Shown: positions 1,041 to 37,744 of the stretch, one piece after another
Numbering within the stretch: the first letter of the stretch is position 1
Layout of the letters: each line of letters opens with the position of its first letter
Source of the DNA: a virus
Lineage: Duplodnaviria; Heunggongvirae; Uroviricota; Caudoviricetes
Virus record (IMG/VR): IMGVR_UViG_2802429223_000002
Strand: one strand, 5' to 3'
Length of the DNA: 43,156 nt
Translations under genes and position numbers: made by a program
The notes under the pieces: model-generated
Databases searched by the model: none
What the model saw: the letters and a program-made list of their open reading frames with translations, nothing else
Told to the model about the DNA's origin: nothing

Positions 1041-1069
1041 TTGATCTTGAGTTTGGTTTTTAGTATAAG
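1041..1069 (+). promoter_or_regulatory. candidate sigma70 promoter for the HTH gene (TTGATC, 17-nt spacer, TATAAG)
   Basis: -35-like TTGATC at 1041-1046 and -10-like TATAAG at 1064-1069, about 25 nt upstream of the SD/ATG at 1084-1098. Confidence 0.35.
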
Positions 1070-1095
1070 TGAGCATGGATTGTAGGAGGCGCAAC

Positions 1096-1446
1096 ATGGT
1101 AACTAGCTTTGGTAAGACTCTCAGAAAAATGAGAATAGACCGGGGTATGGTGCTCAAAAATATGGCTGATCTGTTAGGCGTTAGTTCGGCTTACTTATCC
1201 GCCATTGAATTAGGCAAAAGAGCTATACCGGACTCATTAGTAAATACGATTGCAACAACTTTTGAGCTTAGCGGACAAGACATCATCAATCTCAAGAAAC
1301 AGGCAGAGATTTCTCAACCGTCCATTAAGGTTGATATGTCGGATGCAAATGAGCAGAACAAAGAACTAATGCTTGTTTTTGCTCGTAAATTTAAGGACCT
1401 GAGTCCAGAGCAACTCGATAAGCTTAATAAAATGTTAAAGGACTGA
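1096..1446 (+). CDS. XRE-family helix-turn-helix transcriptional regulator
   Basis: HTH_XRE signature (LRKMRIDRGMVLKNMADLLGVSSAYLSAIELGKR); ATG 1096 chosen because AGGAGG lies 6 nt upstream (ORF track starts at GTG 1069); stop is 3 nt before the next gene. Confidence 0.8.
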   Translation: MVTSFGKTLRKMRIDRGMVLKNMADLLGVSSAYLSAIELGKRAIPDSLVNTIATTFELSGQDIINLKKQAEISQPSIKVDMSDANEQNKELMLVFARKFKDLSPEQLDKLNKMLKD

Positions 1447-1449
1447 ATA

Positions 1450-1983
1450 ATGATTGCGAAACGAGAACTTGGCCATCGCGTTTCACCTCTCAGCACCAGC
1501 ATGATTAAATCATACGCTCATCGTCTGAGAGACGTTCTTCAGATATCAAATCACACATATCTGAGACTGGATGTATTACTAGAAGGTCTTATGGCCTCAG
1601 AAAGCATTGAGCTAGAAATTGTTGAAGATCATGAACTGCCCAAACGCTATGCAGTGACTTATCCAGATAAGAACAAAATTGTTTTACAGCGATCTGTTTA
1701 CGATGCAGTGTGCAATGGTGAGAACCATGCGAGATTCACTGTTGCGCATGAACTTGGTCATTTAGTCATGCATCGCAATCAAAGTATCTATGCACGTAAT
1801 AAGACTAGTGGAGGGCATAAAATCTATGAAGACAGCGAATGGCAAGCAGATGTTTTTGCAAGCCACTTCTTAATTGACTCAAGACTAGTTTTGCCCACAA
1901 TGACTGTTGAAGATATAAGCAAAACATTTGGTGTCAGTCAACAAGCGGCTGAAACCTGGATGAGAAAAAATGCAAAAAGATAA
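1450..1983 (+). CDS. ImmA/IrrE-family zinc metallopeptidase
   Basis: HEXXH motif in FTVAHELGHLVMH plus downstream EWQADVFASHFL, typical of ImmA/IrrE peptidases; tightly coupled to the preceding HTH gene. Confidence 0.8.
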   Translation: MIAKRELGHRVSPLSTSMIKSYAHRLRDVLQISNHTYLRLDVLLEGLMASESIELEIVEDHELPKRYAVTYPDKNKIVLQRSVYDAVCNGENHARFTVAHELGHLVMHRNQSIYARNKTSGGHKIYEDSEWQADVFASHFLIDSRLVLPTMTVEDISKTFGVSQQAAETWMRKNAKR

Positions 1984-1989
1984 CGAAAA

Positions 1990-2014
1990 AGCCAGCGAAC
2001 CGCTGTCGCTGGCT
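1990..2014. terminator. hairpin downstream of the HTH-peptidase operon
   Basis: 9-bp perfect stem AGCCAGCGA / TCGCTGGCT with 7-nt loop; A-run on 5' side, weak T-tract on 3' side. Confidence 0.4.
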
Positions 2015-2108
2015 TCTCCTATCGTAAGCAAATACGAAAAACTTGGCGGTTGTGAGTATACGCTTACCTTAGGTTTTGTCAACAGCGAAACTTTACAGGT
2101 AACACGAT

Positions 2109-2252
2109 ATGACCATTGAAAAAGCTGTATCTGAGGAATACATCACAATTTACCGTCCTTTTATTACGGTCAAAGGTAAACGGATCTTTGCTCGTCAAAA
2201 AGGCTTGGCAGCCTTTCCTATCAAAATTCCTGCCTCTAAGTATCGAGGATAA
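2109..2252 (+). CDS. possible small ORF (47 aa, basic C-terminus)
   Basis: ATG 2109 to TAA 2250-2252, MTIEKAVSEEYITIYRPFITVKGKRIFARQKGLAAFPIKIPASKYRG; weak RBS; not in ORF track (under 60 aa); may be a gene remnant. Confidence 0.2.
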   Translation: MTIEKAVSEEYITIYRPFITVKGKRIFARQKGLAAFPIKIPASKYRG

Positions 2253-2454
2253 TCTTTGCTAATCTTAGGCCCTTTTCTAGGGCCTTTTATTACACTTCTG
2301 TTACGCGCACCACAGATAGAGTTTCAGCTAAAACTTTTGTTCATACCTAGGAGTCTGCTGACGAGTGGTTTGTTCACTAATAAACACGTAAAAACGGTAA
2401 CGGCTGGACATCATTCAATATTCGCACTATTGGAAGTTCACCAGCCAGCCACAG

Positions 2455-2500
2455 CACGTTCTTGCATACAACGTGCCTGCGGTTTTTGAGACCGGTCCGA
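2455..2500 (+). terminator. terminator-like hairpin plus T5, degenerate copy of the element at 3469-3512
   Basis: GCACGT...ACGTGC stem extended by CAG/CTG, then GGTTTTT; about 80 percent identical to the hairpin after the GIY-YIG gene. Confidence 0.35.
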
Positions 2501-2577
2501 TCATCAAACGAAACATAAAATTAGCTCACACTATGAGGAAAAGTATCTTTTTTTACTATGTAAATTCAAAGAATTAG

Positions 2578-3447
<870 letters not shown>

Positions 3448-26384: not shown

Positions 26385-26415
26385 TTTTTCCGCGACGCTC
26401 CCGCCCCGTGAGAGC
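26385..26415 (-). other. putative cos site (cosN-like)
   Basis: Minus-strand reading GGGGCGGGAGCGTCGCGGAAAAAG resembles lambda cosN GGGCGGCGACCTCGCGGGTTTTCG; located about 180 nt upstream of the small terminase start, as in lambda. Confidence 0.4.
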
Positions 26416-26554
26416 TCAGGTCATCAGAAGGACCCACATTAAAGGCAGAATATTCACTCTGATATTACGCATTGTTTTGCTTTTGTAGATTCGCAATTTA
26501 CGGTAAAAATACTTTTGCTATTTCTTCGTACCATAAATGCACAGGAGTATCTTC

Positions 26555-26875
26555 ATGTCCATAAAGGTATTCAGAAGTGACCTTCAGACTGAGAGTGAAT
26601 CAGACTATCGTAATTGGCTTGGCGATAATCCAGACGGATATGTTGTCAATGCATTGAAGCGAACCAGAGGTAAAGGTAATAAATCTGACGAACGCTTTAC
26701 CAGAATCCATAGAGCATCTTGCAAAACGATTAATCCCTTGAAACGCAAGATCGATAAAACAGGATTCACAACTGGAGATTATCAAAAAATATGCTCAACC
26801 AACTTCCTCAATGTTGAAAATGAAGCAAAGAAAATGACAGGTCTGACAAGCATCATCAAATGTCGATGCATCTAA
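26555..26875 (+). CDS. hypothetical protein (AT-rich moron candidate)
   Basis: 106 aa from ATG 26555 with AGGAG SD; opposite strand to the late genes; no family recognised. Confidence 0.5.
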   Translation: MSIKVFRSDLQTESESDYRNWLGDNPDGYVVNALKRTRGKGNKSDERFTRIHRASCKTINPLKRKIDKTGFTTGDYQKICSTNFLNVENEAKKMTGLTSIIKCRCI

Positions 26876-27092
26876 AGCGTCATGTAATTAACATGTTCAC
26901 AACACTCTCCGGGTGACCGCTAATGCTGTTGTCAGCCAAAAACTCTACGTTTCGATTATGCCAATTTTGCACCGCCCGATGCCGATAAATGCGAAAATCC
27001 GGCGACTATGTAGCGTAATCAAATCAACGAGATACCACTTTCATGAAATAATTATCATCTGTCAGTTCAATATCAATGTTGAGAGAGAATAA

Positions 27093-27245
27093 ATGAGAGG
27101 AATGCCAAGAGGAAGTCGAGGACAGAGGGCTGTCCAATCAACTGCAAGAAGAGCAAGACGATCAAATGCCAGCCATTCTGACCAATTAGGATGCCTGGCA
27201 CTAATCATCGTTGGCCTGATATTTATCTATTTCATGGCTAATTAG
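27093..27245 (+). CDS. possible small membrane protein (50 aa, Arg-rich N-terminus, C-terminal TM helix)
   Basis: MRGMPRGSRGQRAVQSTARRARRSNASHSDQLGCLALIIVGLIFIYFMAN; many rare AGA/AGG/CGA codons; below ORF-track size cutoff. Confidence 0.25.
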   Translation: MRGMPRGSRGQRAVQSTARRARRSNASHSDQLGCLALIIVGLIFIYFMAN

Positions 27246-27255
27246 CAAAGATTGC

Positions 27256-27699
27256 TCATCTTACACACTGCGTGCGAATGTATTGCTGCAAGCCTCGGAT
27301 CATTTTATCACTGGTTTCAATCCGCTTTCTAAGGGTGAAATAATCCCGTTGAGCGGTGTCAGTAAGTCTGGGGCTGGTGCCATCATCCACGCCGGAGGCG
27401 GCGGTGATTTTATGCATGTCTGGACAGACAGCTTTGACGCGCAGCCACTTACGCCCAGCAGAAACATCAGCACGAAGACTTTCGATAGTCGCGTTAGCAT
27501 CAGCAAGCTCCTTTGTGTATCTGGCGTCGAGTTCTGCTACATCACGTTGACGCTTCTGCATATCAGCGATAGTGGATGCGGCTTTGTCGCGTTGCTCTTT
27601 GTAGGCGATGGCGTTATCACGGTAATGATTAACAGCCCATAACAGGCAGACGATGATGCAGATAATCAGAGCGGAGATAATCGCGGTTACTCTGCTCAT
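27256..27699 (-). CDS. Rz: i-spanin Rz
   Basis: [34 protein letters not shown]... matches lambda Rz as recalled; start ATG 27699 abuts endolysin stop. Confidence 0.9.
27300..27506 (-). CDS. Rz1: o-spanin Rz1 (lipoprotein, embedded in Rz in another frame)
   Basis: Lipobox LLGVSGC followed by the proline-rich [24 protein letters not shown], as in lambda Rz1. Confidence 0.8.
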
Positions 27700-28193
27700 T
27701 GCTGCCCCCACAAACAGACTTCACGCTCAATCTCACGACGAGTCATCAGTCCTTTCCATTGCTTACCTCCAGCGTATGTCCAGCGACGTAGCTGATCACA
27801 TGCGCCTTTGATATCGCCATGGTTTATTTTGCGAAGAAGCGTCGATGTTCTGAAATTGCCAGCACCCACGTTGTAGACGAACGAGTAAAGAGCGCCGCGC
27901 GTTGTTTCCGGTATATCGACTTTGATGTACGGGTTAATTTGTCTGGCGACCGTGGCAAGGTCTTTATTCAGGAGGGCTTTGCATTCTGCTTCGGTATACG
28001 TTTTACCGAGCATGATGTCTTTTCCGGTGTGTCCGTGGCATACAGTCCATACACCAACAATATCTTTGTATGGTATGTAGCTGACACCTTCCAGACCATC
28101 GTTACCACTTGGGCCAGTGATTAACACTGATGCTATAGCAATTGCTCCGCCACCAATAGCAGCAGCAACTGCTTTTCGTAATGATGGAGGCAT
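27696..28193 (-). CDS. R: SAR endolysin (phage 21 R-type lysozyme)
   Basis: N-terminal signal-anchor-release segment [20 protein letters not shown] followed by lysozyme domain; matches phage 21 R as recalled. Confidence 0.9.
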
Positions 28194-28408
28194 TATTCAC
28201 CTCTCGCAGCCTTGCGCTTATCTTCTTTAATCTTGAAATAAAGGTTTGTCAGATACGTCAGCAAGCCAAATACCAGACTACCCAGCACACCTATTGCCGC
28301 CCACTGTGAGGGCGTGACTTTATCGAGCAACTGTAAAAACCAGTACCCGGCACTACCTGCTGAGGTGCCATAGGCGACACCCGTTGTTAACTTATCCATG
28401 GATTTCAT
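28193..28408 (-). CDS. S: pinholin S (phage 21 S-type) with dual-start motif
   Basis: [71 protein letters not shown]; two in-frame Met (M1, M4); GAGGTGGAG SD. Confidence 0.9.
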
Positions 28409-28446
28409 AACTCCACCTCGCAGATGCGGGTGCAAATTGAGAGAAT

Positions 28447-28478
28447 AAAAAATCCCCGACAATTCCAGATGTCAGCGG
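28447..28478 (-). terminator. possible tR'-like hairpin and U-tract just upstream of S
   Basis: Minus-strand CTGACA...TGTCGG imperfect stem followed by GGATTTTTTATT. Confidence 0.3.
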
Positions 28479-28675: not shown

Positions 28676-29224
28676 ATGGCGAACAATCTTTTTTATACAC
28701 TTGACAGGCAGCGCACACTGAAGTCAGGCATGAAAATTGAATTAGCAGAACCGTACTGCCCAATCGTTCCACTTCAGGCTCATACGAGCTCATTGTTTTC
28801 CGACGGTGTATCCCGGCATGCAAATAATCTTTTTTTCAACTACCACATAAACCTCGTCAGCTCAGACGAACGATTTGGAGCAATAATAGAAATACTACTG
28901 GAAGAACGAAGGAAATCACACTTCCCTGAAAAACCATCGCGCTTCCAATCAATTTTTGCATGTGAGTCTGTAAAAGAAACCGCCTGGTTCAGAGGCTTTT
29001 CAAAATCCCCACTTGACACCCCAATATTTCAAGTCAGCTCATCGTCGAACTATCATAGAGGTGATATGAATTTGTTAAATCTGAACTGCTCCCCAGTAGA
29101 AGTATCTCAGAGGCTGGATCTTTACTGGAAGGGTGAAACAACACAGATTTACGAAGGGTATCAACCATTCTGGGAAGTGCTCATTCCATTGCCAGTTATT
29201 ATTGGTGAAAGAATTATCGAATAA
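28676..29224 (+). CDS. hypothetical protein (Q-S island gene 1)
   Basis: 182 aa, AGGAA SD before ATG; AT-rich; antisense to the late transcript; no family recognised. Confidence 0.55.
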   Translation: MANNLFYTLDRQRTLKSGMKIELAEPYCPIVPLQAHTSSLFSDGVSRHANNLFFNYHINLVSSDERFGAIIEILLEERRKSHFPEKPSRFQSIFACESVKETAWFRGFSKSPLDTPIFQVSSSSNYHRGDMNLLNLNCSPVEVSQRLDLYWKGETTQIYEGYQPFWEVLIPLPVIIGERIIE

Positions 29225-29519
29225 TGGCTCTGACACCAGAATCATTTCCATAGCCGAACTGACGCTGACAGATTTTTAATTCGCTTATGGCTTTCTCCAT
29301 TGCTAATAGCGCGTCTTCAGTACGGTAGCAATCAACCTCAAGAACAAACGTTTTGAGATTGCTACTATCATTCCCGGCGAAAAGCGCATAGCTGGGTTGA
29401 CCAGTCTGATTCATCCCCCCCCCCTCAAACGACGAAACCCGCTCGACGGCGGGTTTAAGCCACGTGACAAAGTAACCACTCTTAACACGATACAATAGTT
29501 TTTGCGTACGCGTTAGCAT
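29214..29519 (-). CDS. hypothetical protein containing a G10 homopolymer tract (Q-S island gene 2)
   Basis: 101 aa ORF; the run of 10 C on the plus strand (29415-29424) encodes E-G-G-G; reading frame depends on tract length. Confidence 0.4.
   Translation of the reverse strand: MLTRTQKLLYRVKSGYFVTWLKPAVERVSSFEGGGMNQTGQPSYALFAGNDSSNLKTFVLEVDCYRTEDALLAMEKAISELKICQRQFGYGNDSGVRAIIR
29415..29424. repeat. C10/G10 homopolymer tract
   Basis: Ten consecutive C at 29415-29424 inside ORF 29214-29519. Confidence 0.95.
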
Positions 29520-29567
29520 TTTTGTTAAAGTATAAAAATGTAATTAAACCAGTATGTCATCACTACA

Positions 29568-30452
29568 ATGAAATGCATCCGAAAACATCCAGCAATAGCT
29601 TATACAGTAATTATTTTAGTTTTTGCCTTAATATACAATTTCACTTGGAGCGTCAATCCAGATTCTTTCATTAAAAACAACGTTCTCAACTCTACACCTG
29701 TATATGATGCCGTTAATTTAGCATATGCGAACAATGAGGTAAAAAAAGAAGCTCCTGTCAGTGTTTCGAGGGAAGTATTTGCAGAGCAAATTTTAACACT
29801 TACAAATCAATTCAATAAGATAATAATTGAAAACTTAGAACTTGAAAAAACATTATCTCAGCAGCAAGAAAAATTAAAACAAATTAGTGAAAGACAATCA
29901 ATAAAGTGGGGCGAAAACACCAAAAAATACATAGCAGACAGTTTGAAAGATTTACACAAAACGCTTATCACTAAAAATAGTGAACGTACTGCCATAGCAT
30001 CTTTAAAAAACAAAACAAATGAAAGTCAGATTAACATTATGCTGGCCGACAAAGATGAAGAAATAGCCAAAATAAACCTTGAAATAGCGTATAAAGAGAA
30101 TGATGCTAATGTCTATATCTTATCTCATGTCGGCGACTTTAACGATCCAATAATCGTTAATGAGCTTGACGCAATCAATAAAGAAATTGAGAAAACAAGA
30201 ACAAAAATAATAAACAATAAAAAGAAAATAATGGAGATAAGGAGTAAATCTCAATCTATGCTGGAGAAACTCAAAAAAGATGACCTTAACTTTTGGGATT
30301 TCTTATTTTATAGCATAGGAATATCTACAACGACCACCTTTGGTGATTTGTTAGCAAATTCAAGACTTATCAGACTGATAGTTTGCGTGCAACTTTTACT
30401 ATCAATTATAGTTTTAGCTAACGTAACTCAAAGATTTTTATCAAAAAAATAA
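29568..30452 (+). CDS. membrane protein: N-terminal TM helix, long coiled-coil, C-terminal pore-loop-like motif (Q-S island gene 3)
   Basis: 294 aa; TM segment AIAYTVIILVFALIYNFTW; Lys/Glu-rich heptad region; C-terminus FLFYSIGISTTTTFGDL then hydrophobic helix RLIVCVQLLLSIIVLANV; very AT-rich. Confidence 0.55.
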   Translation: MKCIRKHPAIAYTVIILVFALIYNFTWSVNPDSFIKNNVLNSTPVYDAVNLAYANNEVKKEAPVSVSREVFAEQILTLTNQFNKIIIENLELEKTLSQQQEKLKQISERQSIKWGENTKKYIADSLKDLHKTLITKNSERTAIASLKNKTNESQINIMLADKDEEIAKINLEIAYKENDANVYILSHVGDFNDPIIVNELDAINKEIEKTRTKIINNKKKIMEIRSKSQSMLEKLKKDDLNFWDFLFYSIGISTTTTFGDLLANSRLIRLIVCVQLLLSIIVLANVTQRFLSKK

Positions 30453-30460
30453 AAAACAAA

Positions 30461-30478
30461 GCCCTCAAAAATGAGGGC
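30461..30478. terminator. bidirectional terminator between island gene 3 and Q
   Basis: GCCCTCA / TGAGGGC 7-bp stem with AAAA loop, flanked by an A-run upstream and TAATTT downstream. Confidence 0.6.
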
Positions 30479-30489
30479 TAATTTAAACC

Positions 30490-30834
30490 TTAAGATAAGA
30501 ACGATAAAATCCCGTCCAAAAATCCTAGTGCAGTTTGCAATTCCTTTCTAATCGTGCCATCTGAACACCTTCTCTTCTTGGCAATAGTGCGTAATGAGAT
30601 ACCAATAACAAAGTGGGCAATTAGTAGCTCATATTCTTCTGGCTTATATTTACGCAACCTCGCCACACATCCATCAATCATAAGACCTTCATCATCATCA
30701 CACTGCATCCGGGACTTTTTGCCATGAGGTAAAAGCCCCTTGAAGCCTGCTGCTATCGGCTGCCAATCCACACTACTGTTATCTGCTGCAGCCCATGCTC
30801 CCCAGCGGTCCAAAACTTCATACATGTCACGCAT
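30490..30834 (-). CDS. late-gene antiterminator Q (QuuD / phage 82-type family)
   Basis: [35 protein letters not shown]...[20 protein letters not shown] resembles E. coli QuuD as recalled ([35 protein letters not shown]...); lies upstream of the lysis cassette. Confidence 0.85.
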   Translation of the reverse strand: [114 protein letters not shown]

Positions 30835-30851
30835 CAACTTTCTCCACAAAA

Positions 30852-31847
30852 TCAGGCCAGCACGCCAATTGCCAGCGCACGATCGATAAAACGAAATATC
30901 AACTCCAGCTGGGAGCCATACTTCTCTTCAAATGCCACGGTATCCGCATGCAGCTCGTCGTGATGCTTTCTGCACAAAGGCAACACAAAGAGGTCATGTG
31001 CTTTTGTACCCATTCCACCCTGACCGTGGCCTATCAGGTGGTGGGGATCATCAGCAGGCTTTCCACAACATGCACACGGCTGAGTCTTAACCCAGCGCGT
31101 GTACTTTTCATTAACCCAACGGCGACGTTTGGGGCGTAACATAAAAGACTCCGGCGACTCCGGATCCACTTCCAGCGACAGCACATTTTTCGCTTTATCC
31201 TGGATGATGCTGGTGGCAGGAACCGAAGGAACAAGGTCACTTTCCCGGGTGACAGACGGCACAACAGGCTTCGGTAATCTCAGTGCCTTACGGGCTGCAC
31301 TTTCCGGTAAGGCATCCGCCAGATCATTACGAATCAGCCACCAGCACAGTTCCGGCATTGTCACAACGTGACTATCATCAAAACCGAGAGCCCGACGCAC
31401 AACAGACAACACCCAGCGGGCACAGTTATCCGTTGCCATTGATTCCAGCCGTTCCGTGAACTGATCGCGCAGTTGGTTATCGCAGTGCCAGCACAGACGG
31501 ATTGCGCCAGGCGCGTGTCGCATTGTGGTCATGTTCTCGCTGTGCCAGTTGGAATGAGGCCACTGGCAGCCTTTTTCACGAAGTAACCAGCTTTCAAGAC
31601 ATTCCACGCCACCAGCACGACGGATCACTGCCTCATTGCGGAACACGGCCCGAACGGCAGGATCATCCGCAAGCGGTTGTGACGCCGCGGGAACGGCACC
31701 ACTGGCGAAAGATGAATAATGCTCCGGCTCAGGCTCCAGCAGGACACGCCCCTGCATAAACAGGGGCATCAGCTCTGAACCGGGCCTGAACAATACGATC
31801 CCCATACGCGGGGCAATTTCAGGGGTCAGTAGTGCTCTCACGGTCAC
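30852..31847 (-). CDS. DUF968-like phage protein with C-terminal HNH-like zinc-ribbon motif
   Basis: 331 aa; C-terminal CACCGKPADDPHHLIGHGQGGMGTKAHDLFVLPLCRKHHDELH; position between nin-region genes and Q. Confidence 0.55.
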   Translation of the reverse strand: MTVRALLTPEIAPRMGIVLFRPGSELMPLFMQGRVLLEPEPEHYSSFASGAVPAASQPLADDPAVRAVFRNEAVIRRAGGVECLESWLLREKGCQWPHSNWHSENMTTMRHAPGAIRLCWHCDNQLRDQFTERLESMATDNCARWVLSVVRRALGFDDSHVVTMPELCWWLIRNDLADALPESAARKALRLPKPVVPSVTRESDLVPSVPATSIIQDKAKNVLSLEVDPESPESFMLRPKRRRWVNEKYTRWVKTQPCACCGKPADDPHHLIGHGQGGMGTKAHDLFVLPLCRKHHDELHADTVAFEEKYGSQLELIFRFIDRALAIGVLA

Positions 31848-31848
31848 C

Positions 31849-32658
31849 TCAATGAACGGTATCGAGCAGCTTTAACAGCTCAGGGAATCGGGATTCGAAG
31901 AAATGCGGCTGCGTCTCGCGCGGATTTGCGGGAGTGGTGATGTTTTTGCCGAACATGCAGCCTTTCGCCGTCAGCGACCAGAATTTTTTAATGTTGTTAA
32001 TTGCGGTACGGCTGTATCGTTCGCGTTGTTCAACGATCCCCAGCTTCACCATCTGGTGATATGCCTGATTAGCCGTCAGGCGGATACCATACTGCTTCAG
32101 CAGTGCACTCAGCGACAGCGTGGGACGACTTGAGCCATCGTGTGCATCAGCAGGAGCATCAATGGCATAGCGCGGTGCCAGATTCGGTAAGCCAACAGCC
32201 TCCTGGAGTTTCTGACAGGCCCCAAGCACAGATGAGTTAGACAGGTTTAACTCCCGACGCATAAAGTCCAGCAGAATCACACCAGCCTGCATCTTGTCAG
32301 CAGCCTGTCCGGATAATTTTTCCGGTGCGCTGGTTACCATATCGAAAGTACGGATCACCTTCAGATGGAATGACGGGCTGATCCACATTGCATAGGCATA
32401 CACCAGTTCCTTGCAGACATACGTTCCCCGTTCATTTCCCCCATGAATCACACTCACCGGGTCAACACCCAAATTCTGGGTGTTGGTCAATTCATGAACA
32501 AGCTCAACAGTTTGTTGGCTGGAAAGAAACTTTCCTGGCTCCTTGGTTCTGGCATTTGCACCAGATGCTACTGCTGCGCGATGCAGATCGTTCAGGCTGT
32601 AACGCCCATAAGCATCACGACGAACTTCAATACCATCAATGACCATCAGATTATTCAT
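31849..32658 (-). CDS. KilA-N domain protein
   Basis: N-terminal MVIDGIEVRRDAYGRYSLNDLHRAAV ... fits KilA-N; ATG 32658 preceded by AAGAGGAG SD. Confidence 0.7.
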   Translation of the reverse strand: MNNLMVIDGIEVRRDAYGRYSLNDLHRAAVASGANARTKEPGKFLSSQQTVELVHELTNTQNLGVDPVSVIHGGNERGTYVCKELVYAYAMWISPSFHLKVIRTFDMVTSAPEKLSGQAADKMQAGVILLDFMRRELNLSNSSVLGACQKLQEAVGLPNLAPRYAIDAPADAHDGSSRPTLSLSALLKQYGIRLTANQAYHQMVKLGIVEQRERYSRTAINNIKKFWSLTAKGCMFGKNITTPANPRETQPHFFESRFPELLKLLDTVH

Positions 32659-36130: not shown

Positions 36131-36817
36131 GTGAAAACACTGGCAGAACGATTAAAGATAGGTAGAGAGAAAGCTGGCATGAGCCAAGCTCAACTAGCTG
36201 AAAAAATTGGACTTTCACAACAATCTGTAGCCAAAATAGAGAATGGCGAAACTCTACAACCGCGCAAAATTAAAGAAATTGCAAAAGTTTTAGGTGTATC
36301 ACAAAAGTGGTTACAACTTGGTATTGAAGACAACGCATCCATACCTGATCTTGTTGTAAAAGAAGCAGAAAGCACCGCATTAGACCCCGATATTTTCGTA
36401 AACATTCCTGTTTTAGATGTCGAGTTATCGGCAGGTAACGGATGTCTGGCTGAAATAGTTGAATCAGCTATTGACTGGTTTCCGTTAAGAAGAGCAGATT
36501 TGAGAAAATCTGGCGTATGTGCATCTAATGCCAAGATCGTAAAAATATGGGGGAACAGTTTATTACCAGTTCTCAATAATGGAGATCTTGTTGCCGTTGA
36601 TATTTCTCAAACCGTTCCTATTCGTGATGGCGATCTTTATGCCGTACGAGATGGTGTATTGCTAAGGGTTAAAATACTTATCAACTTACCTGACGGTGGC
36701 TTGATTCTTAGAAGCTTCAACAAAGATGAGTACCCAGATGAAATACTCACCTTTGAAGATAGACGAGCCAGAATTCATGTTATAGGTAGGGTATTCTGGT
36801 CATCGCGAACTTGGTAA
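36131..36817 (+). CDS. CI-like prophage repressor (HTH_XRE N-terminus, S24 LexA-like peptidase C-terminus)
   Basis: GTG start with AGAGAGGG SD; HTH (MSQAQLAEKIGLSQQSVAKIENGE) and C-terminal S24-like autocleavage domain. Confidence 0.85.
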   Translation: MKTLAERLKIGREKAGMSQAQLAEKIGLSQQSVAKIENGETLQPRKIKEIAKVLGVSQKWLQLGIEDNASIPDLVVKEAESTALDPDIFVNIPVLDVELSAGNGCLAEIVESAIDWFPLRRADLRKSGVCASNAKIVKIWGNSLLPVLNNGDLVAVDISQTVPIRDGDLYAVRDGVLLRVKILINLPDGGLILRSFNKDEYPDEILTFEDRRARIHVIGRVFWSSRTW

Positions 36818-37690
36818 TGCATCGAAAAGCATTTCTTCAGAAATAATTTTAAGTTTTGCACCATTATCATCCCTATAAGATATAGCTTTTTCGATCTTCC
36901 TTCCGTGACTTGAGAATTTCCAATCACGGGAGGAAAGCGTCCCAATTACTAAAAAATCCAACTTTTGAGTAATTCCACTACTGATGTTCCCACCAGCATT
37001 TTTAATCAAATTTTCAACTACGGCTCTCTTTCCTGCAACAAAAGTGCCTGTAAGACAATAGGTTTTACCCTCTAACTCTATCGAAGCCCCTACATCAATA
37101 GGCAGCCTGGTCGCCAAACCATCCACCACCCCACTTTCCAAGTCACATCCTGTGAAGTCTACTAATGCCTTATGTAGAGTTAAACTCTCATCTTCAGTAA
37201 TAACCCCATCTTTAAGAATTTCCTTTACAAGTGCATAAAGTTTTTTTCCTGGGTAGTTGTTCTTCAAAGCTCCATTTTGCTCAAGCCACCAATTAAGATA
37301 TCTTATTTCTTCTTGAGTTAAGTTCCGATCAGCAATTAATCCTTTACATAGTCCATTAAGTAAATGGACATCTACATCCTTGGAGTAAAAATCAATTTCA
37401 GGGATATCAAGAATTTCCCTCTGTATTTGGAGAAGGCTATTTTTAAGGTCATCACGTTCTTCTGATGTGATTATTCCATCCGCAAGAATATCCGACACCC
37501 GTGCTGATAGACTTTTTATAACTCCATTATTGATAATCTGCTTTGCTTCAAGTACCCATGTATCTAAGTAAAGAACCTCCTCTTCACGGACAACTCCATC
37601 TGCAATGATTCCATCAATGATGCTAATCAAGTTAGCAAATAACTTGTCCCGGTTCTGTGTGTAATTAAAAGCGTAAAGCGCGTCTTCCAT
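36800..37690 (-). CDS. tandem-repeat protein with C-terminal BRCT-like domain (rex-slot cargo gene)
   Basis: 296 aa from ATG 37690 (AGGAGG SD); four ~40-aa repeats (IADGVVREEEVLYL / LADGIITSEERDDL / IADRNLTQEEIRYL / LKDGVITEDESLTL) then GKTYCLTGTFVAGKRAVVENLIKNAGGNISSGITQKLDFLVIG, which resembles NAD-ligase BRCT domains; AT-rich. Confidence 0.6.
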   Translation of the reverse strand: MEDALYAFNYTQNRDKLFANLISIIDGIIADGVVREEEVLYLDTWVLEAKQIINNGVIKSLSARVSDILADGIITSEERDDLKNSLLQIQREILDIPEIDFYSKDVDVHLLNGLCKGLIADRNLTQEEIRYLNWWLEQNGALKNNYPGKKLYALVKEILKDGVITEDESLTLHKALVDFTGCDLESGVVDGLATRLPIDVGASIELEGKTYCLTGTFVAGKRAVVENLIKNAGGNISSGITQKLDFLVIGTLSSRDWKFSSHGRKIEKAISYRDDNGAKLKIISEEMLFDALPSSR

Positions 37691-37744
37691 ACAACCTCCT
37701 TTTTTTGATAATCCTTGCACTCCTTGGCTACTCGTTCAAACCAC

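Follow-up and report, generated by a model that had tools for sequence, protein, structure and literature searches.

The window analyzed here, 43,156 nucleotides of a lambdoid prophage (IMG/VR virus record IMGVR_UViG_2802429223_000002), carries a gene whose 294-residue product is, with high confidence, a member of the superfamily of tetrameric cation-channel pores of the KcsA, Kir and NaK type. Its architecture is split: a long coiled coil separates the outer transmembrane helix (TM1) from the pore helix, the selectivity filter and the inner helix (TM2). The filter, TTTTFGD, is unlike that of a K+-selective channel. The gene lies in a low-GC mobile cassette beside the antiterminator gene Q, and we narrowly favor a role for it in anti-phage defense.

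Channel homology and conservation

An initial annotation of the window had likened the C-terminus of this protein, the final 60 codons of the open reading frame (ORF) 29568-30452, to a K-channel pore helix and filter. The likeness is real. The peptide it quoted is exact, and the profile search it had proposed was significant: Pfam Ion_trans_2 (PF07885) matches residues 239-290 at profile positions 22-73 of 79, scoring 24.6 bits against a curated gathering cut-off of 22.5. For a single sequence this is just 2 bits over the cut-off, and phmmer matches to Protein Data Bank (PDB) sequences were weak (KvLm 4h33, E 0.08; KcsA, E ~2), as they might be for a chance resemblance or a spurious ORF. The relatives effectively refute this explanation, to which we attach next to no weight. 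A word-index search returned 108 homologues, Ion_trans_2 was matched individually by 59 of 59 relatives (best E 1.4e-9), and among 1.84 billion cluster representatives, searched exhaustively with a hidden Markov model, 171 clusters passed E <= 1e-30 and 331 passed E <= 1e-10, almost all being full-length proteins of 280-330 amino acids (aa).

The homologues from the word-index search are mostly of this same length, range in identity from 99% to about 24%, and come from Enterobacterales, Vibrio, Shewanella, Psychrobacter, Comamonas and cyanobacterial metagenome-assembled genomes (MAGs). Many carry the NCBI names 'ion channel' or 'potassium channel family protein'. The identical protein, whose source record is Escherichia sp. 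MOD1-EC5427, is already in public collections as 'ion channel', and the domain call itself is thus already public.

The string STTTTFGD is unchanged in all full-length hits of the word-index search. Mean pairwise identity falls from 1.00 in the filter to 0.67 in the pore helix, 0.60 in a motif that follows TM1, 0.42 in TM2 and 0.21-0.25 in the coiled coil. The invariant columns of a 59-sequence alignment (A1) are D32, F34, N41, D244, S249, G251, T254-T257, F258, G259, D260 and L276. The phmmer alignments are ungapped and set TTTTFGD on TTVGYGD, D260 on KcsA D80 and R269 on KcsA R89; TFGD stands in the place of GYGD, as the initial annotation had it, and does so in all 59 aligned relatives. A profile of the whole alignment, searched against PDB sequences, was dominated by matches to coiled-coil proteins, the sole channel being KvLm (E 0.095).

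A split pore module

The initial annotation had also stated that a canonical TM1-P-TM2 unit is not present. Here it was mistaken: the unit is present, yet split. When residues 1-33 were joined in silico to residues 236-294, Ion_trans_2 matched over positions 3-73 with 30.0 bits (E 5e-7), and after the same joining a 28%-identical Enterobacter relative scored 29.5 bits, with positions 2-75 matched.

AlphaFold2, run with the family alignment, produced a monomer with a predicted local distance difference test score (pLDDT) of 84.6. In it, the N-terminal transmembrane helix, the long coiled coil and the hydrophobic inner-helix-like segment that had been described from the letters appear as TM1, a helical hairpin (residues 68-234) and TM2, and the pore helix and filter form a pore loop. 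A short helix (residues 44-56) lies between TM1 and the hairpin, which is built of one ascending helix of 78 aa (residues 68-145) and two descending helices (residues 152-186 and 194-234), between which the conserved F191 marks a kink. The monomer predicted for a 23%-identical Vibrio relative (pLDDT 89.5) has the same elements, again with the helix 68-145.

The prediction superposes on KirBac3.1 at 1.8 A over 82 residues, and superpositions on channel structures span 81-87 residues. Because the stretch from pore helix to TM2 amounts to only 52 residues, these superpositions must take in TM1. The outer helix, re-entrant pore helix, filter loop and inner helix are all found in the K-channel fold. 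The structure predictions are of monomers only, and from the fold we infer a homotetramer around a central axis. Table 1 gives the positions of these elements and of the features that surround the gene.

Table 1. Coordinates of the channel gene, its parts and the neighboring features in the window
Feature	Position	Strand	Basis or remark
Complete channel gene, 294 aa (TM1, periplasmic [predicted] coiled-coil hairpin, pore helix, filter, TM2)	29568..30452	+	
TM1 (outer helix), residues 8-29	29589..29654	+	AlphaFold2 helix, hydropathy peak; Ion_trans_2 positions 3-21 match without the insert
Conserved post-TM1 motif W..PDSFI.N..LN..P, residues 27-44	29646..29699	+	Alignment A1; D32, F34, N41 invariant
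Antiparallel coiled-coil hairpin in the TM1-pore loop	29769..30269	+	AlphaFold2 of the window protein and the Vibrio relative; periodicity
Pore helix, residues 242-253 (WDFLFYSIGIS)	30291..30326	+	
Filter T254-T-T-T-F-G-D260, aligned with KcsA T74-T-V-G-Y-G-D80	30327..30347	+	Identical in 59 aligned relatives
TM2 (inner helix), residues 266-293, then basic C-terminal tail RFLSKK	30363..30446	+	
Mobile cassette, ~1 kb	29526..30505	+	blastn boundaries against a channel-less prophage with PDC-M53A+B at the same junctions
Conserved unannotated element of ~115 bp, left anchor of the slot	29413..29527	-	190 complete E. coli genomes match this stretch alone, 89%
G+C-rich hairpin AGCCCTCA-loop-TGAGGGCT, likely terminator	30460..30479	.	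Terminator scan and sequence; between the convergent channel and Q genes
Antiterminator Q, convergent neighbor, right anchor of the slot, separate from the channel	30490..30849	-	Phage_antitermQ match on homologous genes in L001 and L018
Holin	28193-28462	minus	
Endolysin	27696-28193	minus	

A non-canonical selectivity filter

Compared with the KcsA filter, TTTTFGD changes V76 to T, G77 to T and Y78 to F. The K+-selective signature T-[VI]-G-[YF]-G-D, with both of its glycines, is therefore absent, Thr standing at the first Gly. Among 182 parsed sequences of the wider family, the position equivalent to G77 is T in 144, S in 14, G in 12, N in 6, A in 5 and P in 1. About 12 of the 182 (P0167, P0197 and others) retain T-G-Y-G-D while matching the full-length profile. 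Because this minority keeps the canonical filter in the same architecture, the comparison suggests that the family descended from a canonical channel. The natural variants, whose residue at the position of the first glycine is G, N, S, A or P, would be useful material for studies of selectivity.

The G77 position of KcsA needs a left-handed backbone conformation, which is disfavored by L-residues. Because Thr replaces Gly at this position, the expected product is a poorly selective cation pore with altered ion sites, similar to NaK, rather than a strict K+ channel, and a protein with this filter should not be classed among the K+-selective channels.

The coiled-coil insert and its predicted orientation

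The insert between TM1 and the pore helix is about 200 residues long, most of it a coiled-coil hairpin of about 165 residues in which hydrophobic positions recur every 3.5-3.6 residues. At 1.5 A per residue the 78-residue helix measures about 11.7 nm, and the hairpin roughly 11-12 nm. In 57 of 58 sequences, 216-226 aa separate the PDSF motif behind TM1 from the pore motif, despite the poor conservation of the sequence between them. A spacer or ruler would be expected to show such constant length combined with free sequence, and so would a surface under diversifying pressure.

To our knowledge, the TM1-pore loop (the turret) is extracellular in every K channel. The net charge of the window protein is +3 at the N-terminus (MKCIRKH) and +3 at the C-terminal tail. 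Because of K-channel topology and the positive-inside rule we provisionally place the hairpins in the periplasm and both basic termini in the cytoplasm. An efflux-adaptor-like docking role for the hairpin was speculation only and was dropped, the match to EmrA not being significant (E 0.54).

An alternative is that the pore module is a tetramerizing membrane anchor, and that the four periplasmic hairpins obstruct the genome-ejection machinery or an envelope receptor in the manner of P22 SieA or T4 Imm and Sp. Such a structural blocker would agree with a hairpin conserved in length and variable in sequence, as for a spacer or an arms-race interaction surface, with a non-canonical filter that lacks the first Gly, and with the prophage and defense-island contexts described below; P22 SieA is itself an inner-membrane exclusion protein (PMC10883804). 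However, a filter heptad that is 100% identical where the rest shares just 21-25% is hard to explain without passage or binding, and D260 and R269, the equivalents of the KcsA D80-R89 pair, are retained. We judge the blocker improbable.

A mobile cassette beside the antiterminator gene

The GC content of the channel gene is 0.31, compared with 0.50 for the whole window, and genes of the family have values of 0.30-0.34 in hosts of 0.44-0.52. The gene is on the plus strand, while the remaining prophage genes, a DUF968 protein and a KilA-N protein among them, are otherwise on the minus strand. The prophage is flanked by a host proA just 91.8% identical to E. coli proA. Because of this divergence, and because the exact channel protein occurs in Escherichia sp. 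MOD1-EC5427 and close variants of it in E. albertii and E. marmotae, the host is, by sequence comparison, a non-coli Escherichia.

Positions 29435-32000 of the window are collinear with channel-carrying prophages of E. coli (95.6%) and Citrobacter (86.7%), in both of which the channel is beside Q. To the left of 29435 the three diverge, with a DUF2441 gene in the window, a methyltransferase gene in E. coli and HicAB in Citrobacter. A prophage of E. coli H1827/12 (NZ_CP013031.1, L034) shares with the window only 29413-29525 and Q from 30506 on. Between identical junctions its slot (L034:3156-4770) contains two plus-strand genes that are PADLOC defense candidates, PDC-M53A (2e-32) and PDC-M53B (3e-54). 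Since this prophage shares sequence only outside those junctions, they delimit the cassette. Variants of the channel that are 63-99% identical stay beside Q in prophages of E. coli, Citrobacter and IMG/VR (the 63%-identical one in an IMG/VR prophage), and the gene on the other side varies. The DNA of the Q region is about 94% identical to the Q regions of mEp460 and of Shiga toxin 2a (Stx2a)-converting phages. Stx phages carry toxin genes near the Q/late-promoter site, and the Q-to-late-promoter site of lambdoid prophages can be regarded as an exchangeable cargo slot.

The channel gene had no match in a megablast search of 5,426 complete E. coli genomes, where only the flanking element of about 115 bp was matched. 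On the minus strand this element has a terminal hairpin (AAACCCGCC...GGCGGGTTT) that carries compensatory changes from one prophage to another, and a T-run comes after it. The element is probably a Q-dependent late promoter with a short terminated transcript; if so, the channel gene is upstream of the late transcript and outside it. On the other side of the gene, the hairpin that separates it from Q has an A-run on one flank and a T-run on the other, and because of these two runs it is likely a two-way terminator. Rfam gave no credible match around the channel gene. As a self-contained cassette opposite the late-gene strand, between Q and the late-promoter-like element, the channel can presumably be expressed in the lysogen.

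Its position between Q and the lysis cassette (holin and endolysin) allows another reading, in which the channel serves the phage's own cycle as a depolarizing lysis aid or timer (holin- or antiholin-like), or excludes secondary adsorption during lytic growth. Membrane depolarization does trigger holins. However, the strand of the gene is opposite to that of the late genes and of Q, and it lies upstream of the late-promoter-like element and outside the late transcript; it also has its own terminator. Related prophages lack the channel or have PDC-M53 instead, and relatives are found outside prophages, in islands and transposons. A function in the phage's own cycle thus seems to us very unlikely, more so than a structural blocker.

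Several further features of this region were observed. A run of ten G (minus strand) at 29425-29434 closely precedes an ATG at 29414, and an otherwise identical IMG/VR prophage (L042) has nine G. The nine-G variant breaks a 101-aa ORF at 29214-29519 (minus strand), and the real gene is probably a 66-aa ORF at 29214-29414 with the G-run as its ribosome-binding site; neither Pfam nor PADLOC has a match for the 66-aa ORF. The stretch from the late-promoter-like element to the holin is a second variable slot. In the window it holds 28676-29224 (plus strand), encoding a 182-aa DUF2441 protein (26.7 bits, cut-off 25), and in the collinear prophages an N6/N4 methyltransferase (E. coli, L001) or HicAB (Citrobacter, L018). 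A functional pairing of the channel with the DUF2441 gene or the 101-aa ORF was considered and dropped, as they are replaced by the methyltransferase or HicAB in otherwise collinear prophages. There is also a low-GC stretch (0.41) at 26401-27200, between the small terminase and Rz genes, with a 112-aa ORF at 26537-26875 (plus strand) for which no Pfam or PADLOC match was found.

Genomic company of relatives

The family is sporadic. Only 5 of 185,579 species-representative genomes contain its invariant motif, as do 8 of 2.9 million IMG/VR contigs, and tblastn gave no match to the channel in 50,697 phage records and 72,556 plasmids. Where relatives do occur, known or candidate defense genes are recurrent neighbors. 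A family member in an Enterobacterales island is accompanied by genes for nSTAND3, ArdC and an OLD/AAA_15 protein, and by a convergent HD/HD_assoc gene resembling a dGTPase. The pair formed by the channel and this dGTPase-like gene is also present between the tail-fiber and tape-measure genes of a prophage. The spacing of the channel and the convergent 408-aa HD/HD_assoc gene is equal in the chromosomal defense island (L004:6001-8401) and in the prophage tail region (L045:5995-8368), and because it is conserved at both loci it suggests that the two genes were mobilized jointly. In Enterobacter and Lelliottia the channel adjoins ogr where P2-like remnants end, and a TIR_2 gene is close by.

In Vibrio, distant family members have an upstream partner of 226 aa (L025-L028:6331-7011). 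The end of the partner gene overlaps the beginning of the channel gene by 11 nt, and its product consists of an N-terminal transmembrane helix and a helical domain, without a Pfam family. This two-gene module travels as a unit among four genomic sites, which include positions by an Mrr-nSTAND1 protein, by a group II intron, and downstream of the TniQ-Csy2-Csy3-Csy4 genes of a type I-F CRISPR-associated transposon. In Shewanella baltica (L029:10900-11847), a gene resembling HalA of the Hailong system (contiguous TM1-P-TM2 with TLGYGD, then pentapeptide repeats) is 3 kb from the family member; the same island also has PIN7, SRAP and UmuDC genes. An Alteromonadaceae element has an integrase and, immediately upstream of the family member, PDC-S06 (E 3e-235). 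Other members are on transposase-rich marine contigs. One is beside the genes of a P4-alpha-type primase and a CdiA-CT RNase, and one in another prophage has RecE/RecT beside it.

Recurrent defense neighbors and variable slots of prophages, satellites and transposons, with one neutral chromosomal context, are the pattern of candidate defense cargo, a judgment that is qualitative and not a matter of statistical enrichment. The neutral context is that of Serratia, where the family member is between phn and nrdDG in what appears to be ordinary chromosome. Together with a cyanobacterial MAG copy flanked by purD and a PIN toxin pair, and with membership in the K-channel superfamily, this Serratia copy among metabolic genes would fit a host-physiology gene, or moron, namely a K+ or cation channel that aids the lysogen in K+ homeostasis or under osmotic, acid or envelope stress and plays no part in conflicts between phages. 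Fitness factors are common among the products of prophage morons. Against such a gene are the sporadic distribution, a GC of about 0.30-0.34 regardless of host, the recurrent known or candidate defense neighbors, the transposons, satellites and prophages that act as carriers, and a filter unlike that of a K+-selective channel. We hold the moron to be about as improbable as the structural blocker.

Other defense-related genes are present in the window itself. At the other end of the prophage, a low-GC row (0.39-0.43) at 1069-3447 (plus strand) encodes a CapH-like helix-turn-helix protein (E 6e-11), a CapP-like M78 peptidase (E 5e-15) and a GIY-YIG protein that matches the validated defense gene PD-T4-3 (E 2.7e-140). 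By these matches the three-gene row looks like a regulated defense module. In the low-GC immunity region, the product of 36803-37720 (minus strand), 306 aa long, has a BRCT domain at its C-terminus and matches PDC-S48 weakly (E 2.5e-7); the end of this gene overlaps convergently the end of a cI-like repressor gene, 36131-36817 (plus strand).

Proposed function

Because of the sporadic, low-GC distribution on mobile elements, the exchange of the cassette for a defense candidate and the repeated defense neighbors, an anti-phage role is the best functional prediction for the channel gene, one that we hold to be slightly more likely than not. The best explanation overall, which we put at about an even chance, is an envelope sensor-effector channel for prophage-encoded anti-phage defense. 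In such a system the four coiled-coil hairpins would stand in the periplasm over the mouth of a pore that is closed at rest. An incoming phage would cause a periplasmic or envelope event, to be sensed by the coiled coil, variable in sequence and conserved in length, and the signal would pass to the pore through the invariant PDSF motif and the pore helix. Opening of the pore would let cations flow and the membrane potential fall, and depolarization would block entry or replication of the phage genome, as superinfection exclusion or abortive infection. The analysis directly supports the homology, the fold, the split architecture, the pattern of conservation, the structure of the cassette and the link to mobile elements and defense islands; tetramer, topology, conduction, selectivity, trigger and defense role are all things that we infer. 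The part of this scheme in which the coiled coil is a periplasmic sensor that gates the pore through PDSF and the pore helix is tentative. Slightly more doubtful still is the idea of a one-protein immune class, whose fixed-length antenna of about 12 nm would sense passage of the ejection apparatus or envelope damage before genome entry, the pore then depolarizing the cell.

Several observations weigh against the proposed function. L-residues at the G77 equivalent are known to be disruptive in canonical filters, and the pore may conduct poorly or not at all. No convincing sigma-70 promoter or Shine-Dalgarno sequence was found upstream of the channel gene. PADLOC-DB v2.0.0 has no model for the channel protein, its sole match being PDC-M68B over the coiled coil (E 0.072, not significant), and NCBIfam has no family for it. 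The searchable literature, which did not cover subscription journals, yielded no published account of a family with this split architecture, Thr-rich filter and defense-type context. Association with defense genes is an indirect kind of evidence, and the apparently ordinary chromosomal setting of the Serratia copy belongs here as well.

As a natural experiment on K channels, the family shows a turret loop that tolerates about 200 residues, and a filter without the supposedly indispensable first Gly that is nevertheless frozen by selection across hundreds of lineages. It also provides a compact single-gene candidate, of about 1 kb, for envelope-level immunity. If the proposal is correct, this would be the first protein of the K-channel superfamily gated by a large extracellular coiled coil, and if the coiled coil is the sensor, infection would be detected outside the cytoplasm.

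Comparison with known systems

Compared with the minimal two-helix K+ pore modules (KcsA, KirBac/Kir, NaK and the chlorella-virus Kcv), the window protein adds about 200 residues between TM1 and the pore helix, has no cytoplasmic regulatory domain, carries the filter TTTTFGD and is encoded on mobile elements. NaK also departs from TVGYG, and the window protein is likewise unlikely to be K+-selective.

In two-pore-domain K+ (K2P) channels, the cap is a helical insertion from M1 to P1 above the outer pore mouth, and ions exit sideways. The likeness to the window protein is limited to the position of the helical insertion, and the window insert exceeds the cap about three- to fourfold in length; no sequence relationship between the two was detected. 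Membership in K2P was rejected, as each chain has one Ion_trans_2 stretch and two transmembrane segments, not two P-loops and four transmembrane segments. Because there is a single pore domain per chain, the NCBI name 'two pore domain potassium channel family protein', given to some family members, is on domain content a misnomer.

Envelope sensing and one-protein sensor-effectors exist among defense systems, as in Kiwa, Zorya, SNIPE and Rip1 (PMC13434031). The Rip1 pores, Kiwa KwaA, Zorya ZorAB, SNIPE, P22 SieA and lambda RexB are inner-membrane proteins of prophages or islands that sense infection at the envelope, collapse membrane integrity, or both (PMC13434031; PMC10883804). No homology of the window protein to any of these six was found, and none of them combines a K-channel pore with a periplasmic coiled coil.

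The closest functional comparison is with Hailong. Its HalA is a tetrameric pore of the K-channel type, gated by DNA, that acts as a depolarizing anti-phage effector (Tan et al. 2025, as summarized in PMC13434031). A K-channel-type pore can therefore work as an anti-phage effector. HalA keeps its TM1-P-TM2 unit contiguous, with the canonical filter TLGYGD, and carries after it a cytoplasmic crown of pentapeptide repeats, whereas the extra domain of the window protein is predicted to be on the periplasmic side. HalA also needs its partner, the nucleotidyltransferase HalB, whereas the window protein has no HalB-like neighbor. Membership in Hailong was rejected: the window protein lacks a pentapeptide domain and any other domain on the cytoplasmic side, and its neighbors in three prophage contexts are Q and DUF2441, a methyltransferase or HicAB. 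If the proposed function is correct, the window protein would be, in principle, a stand-alone relative of the Hailong effector.
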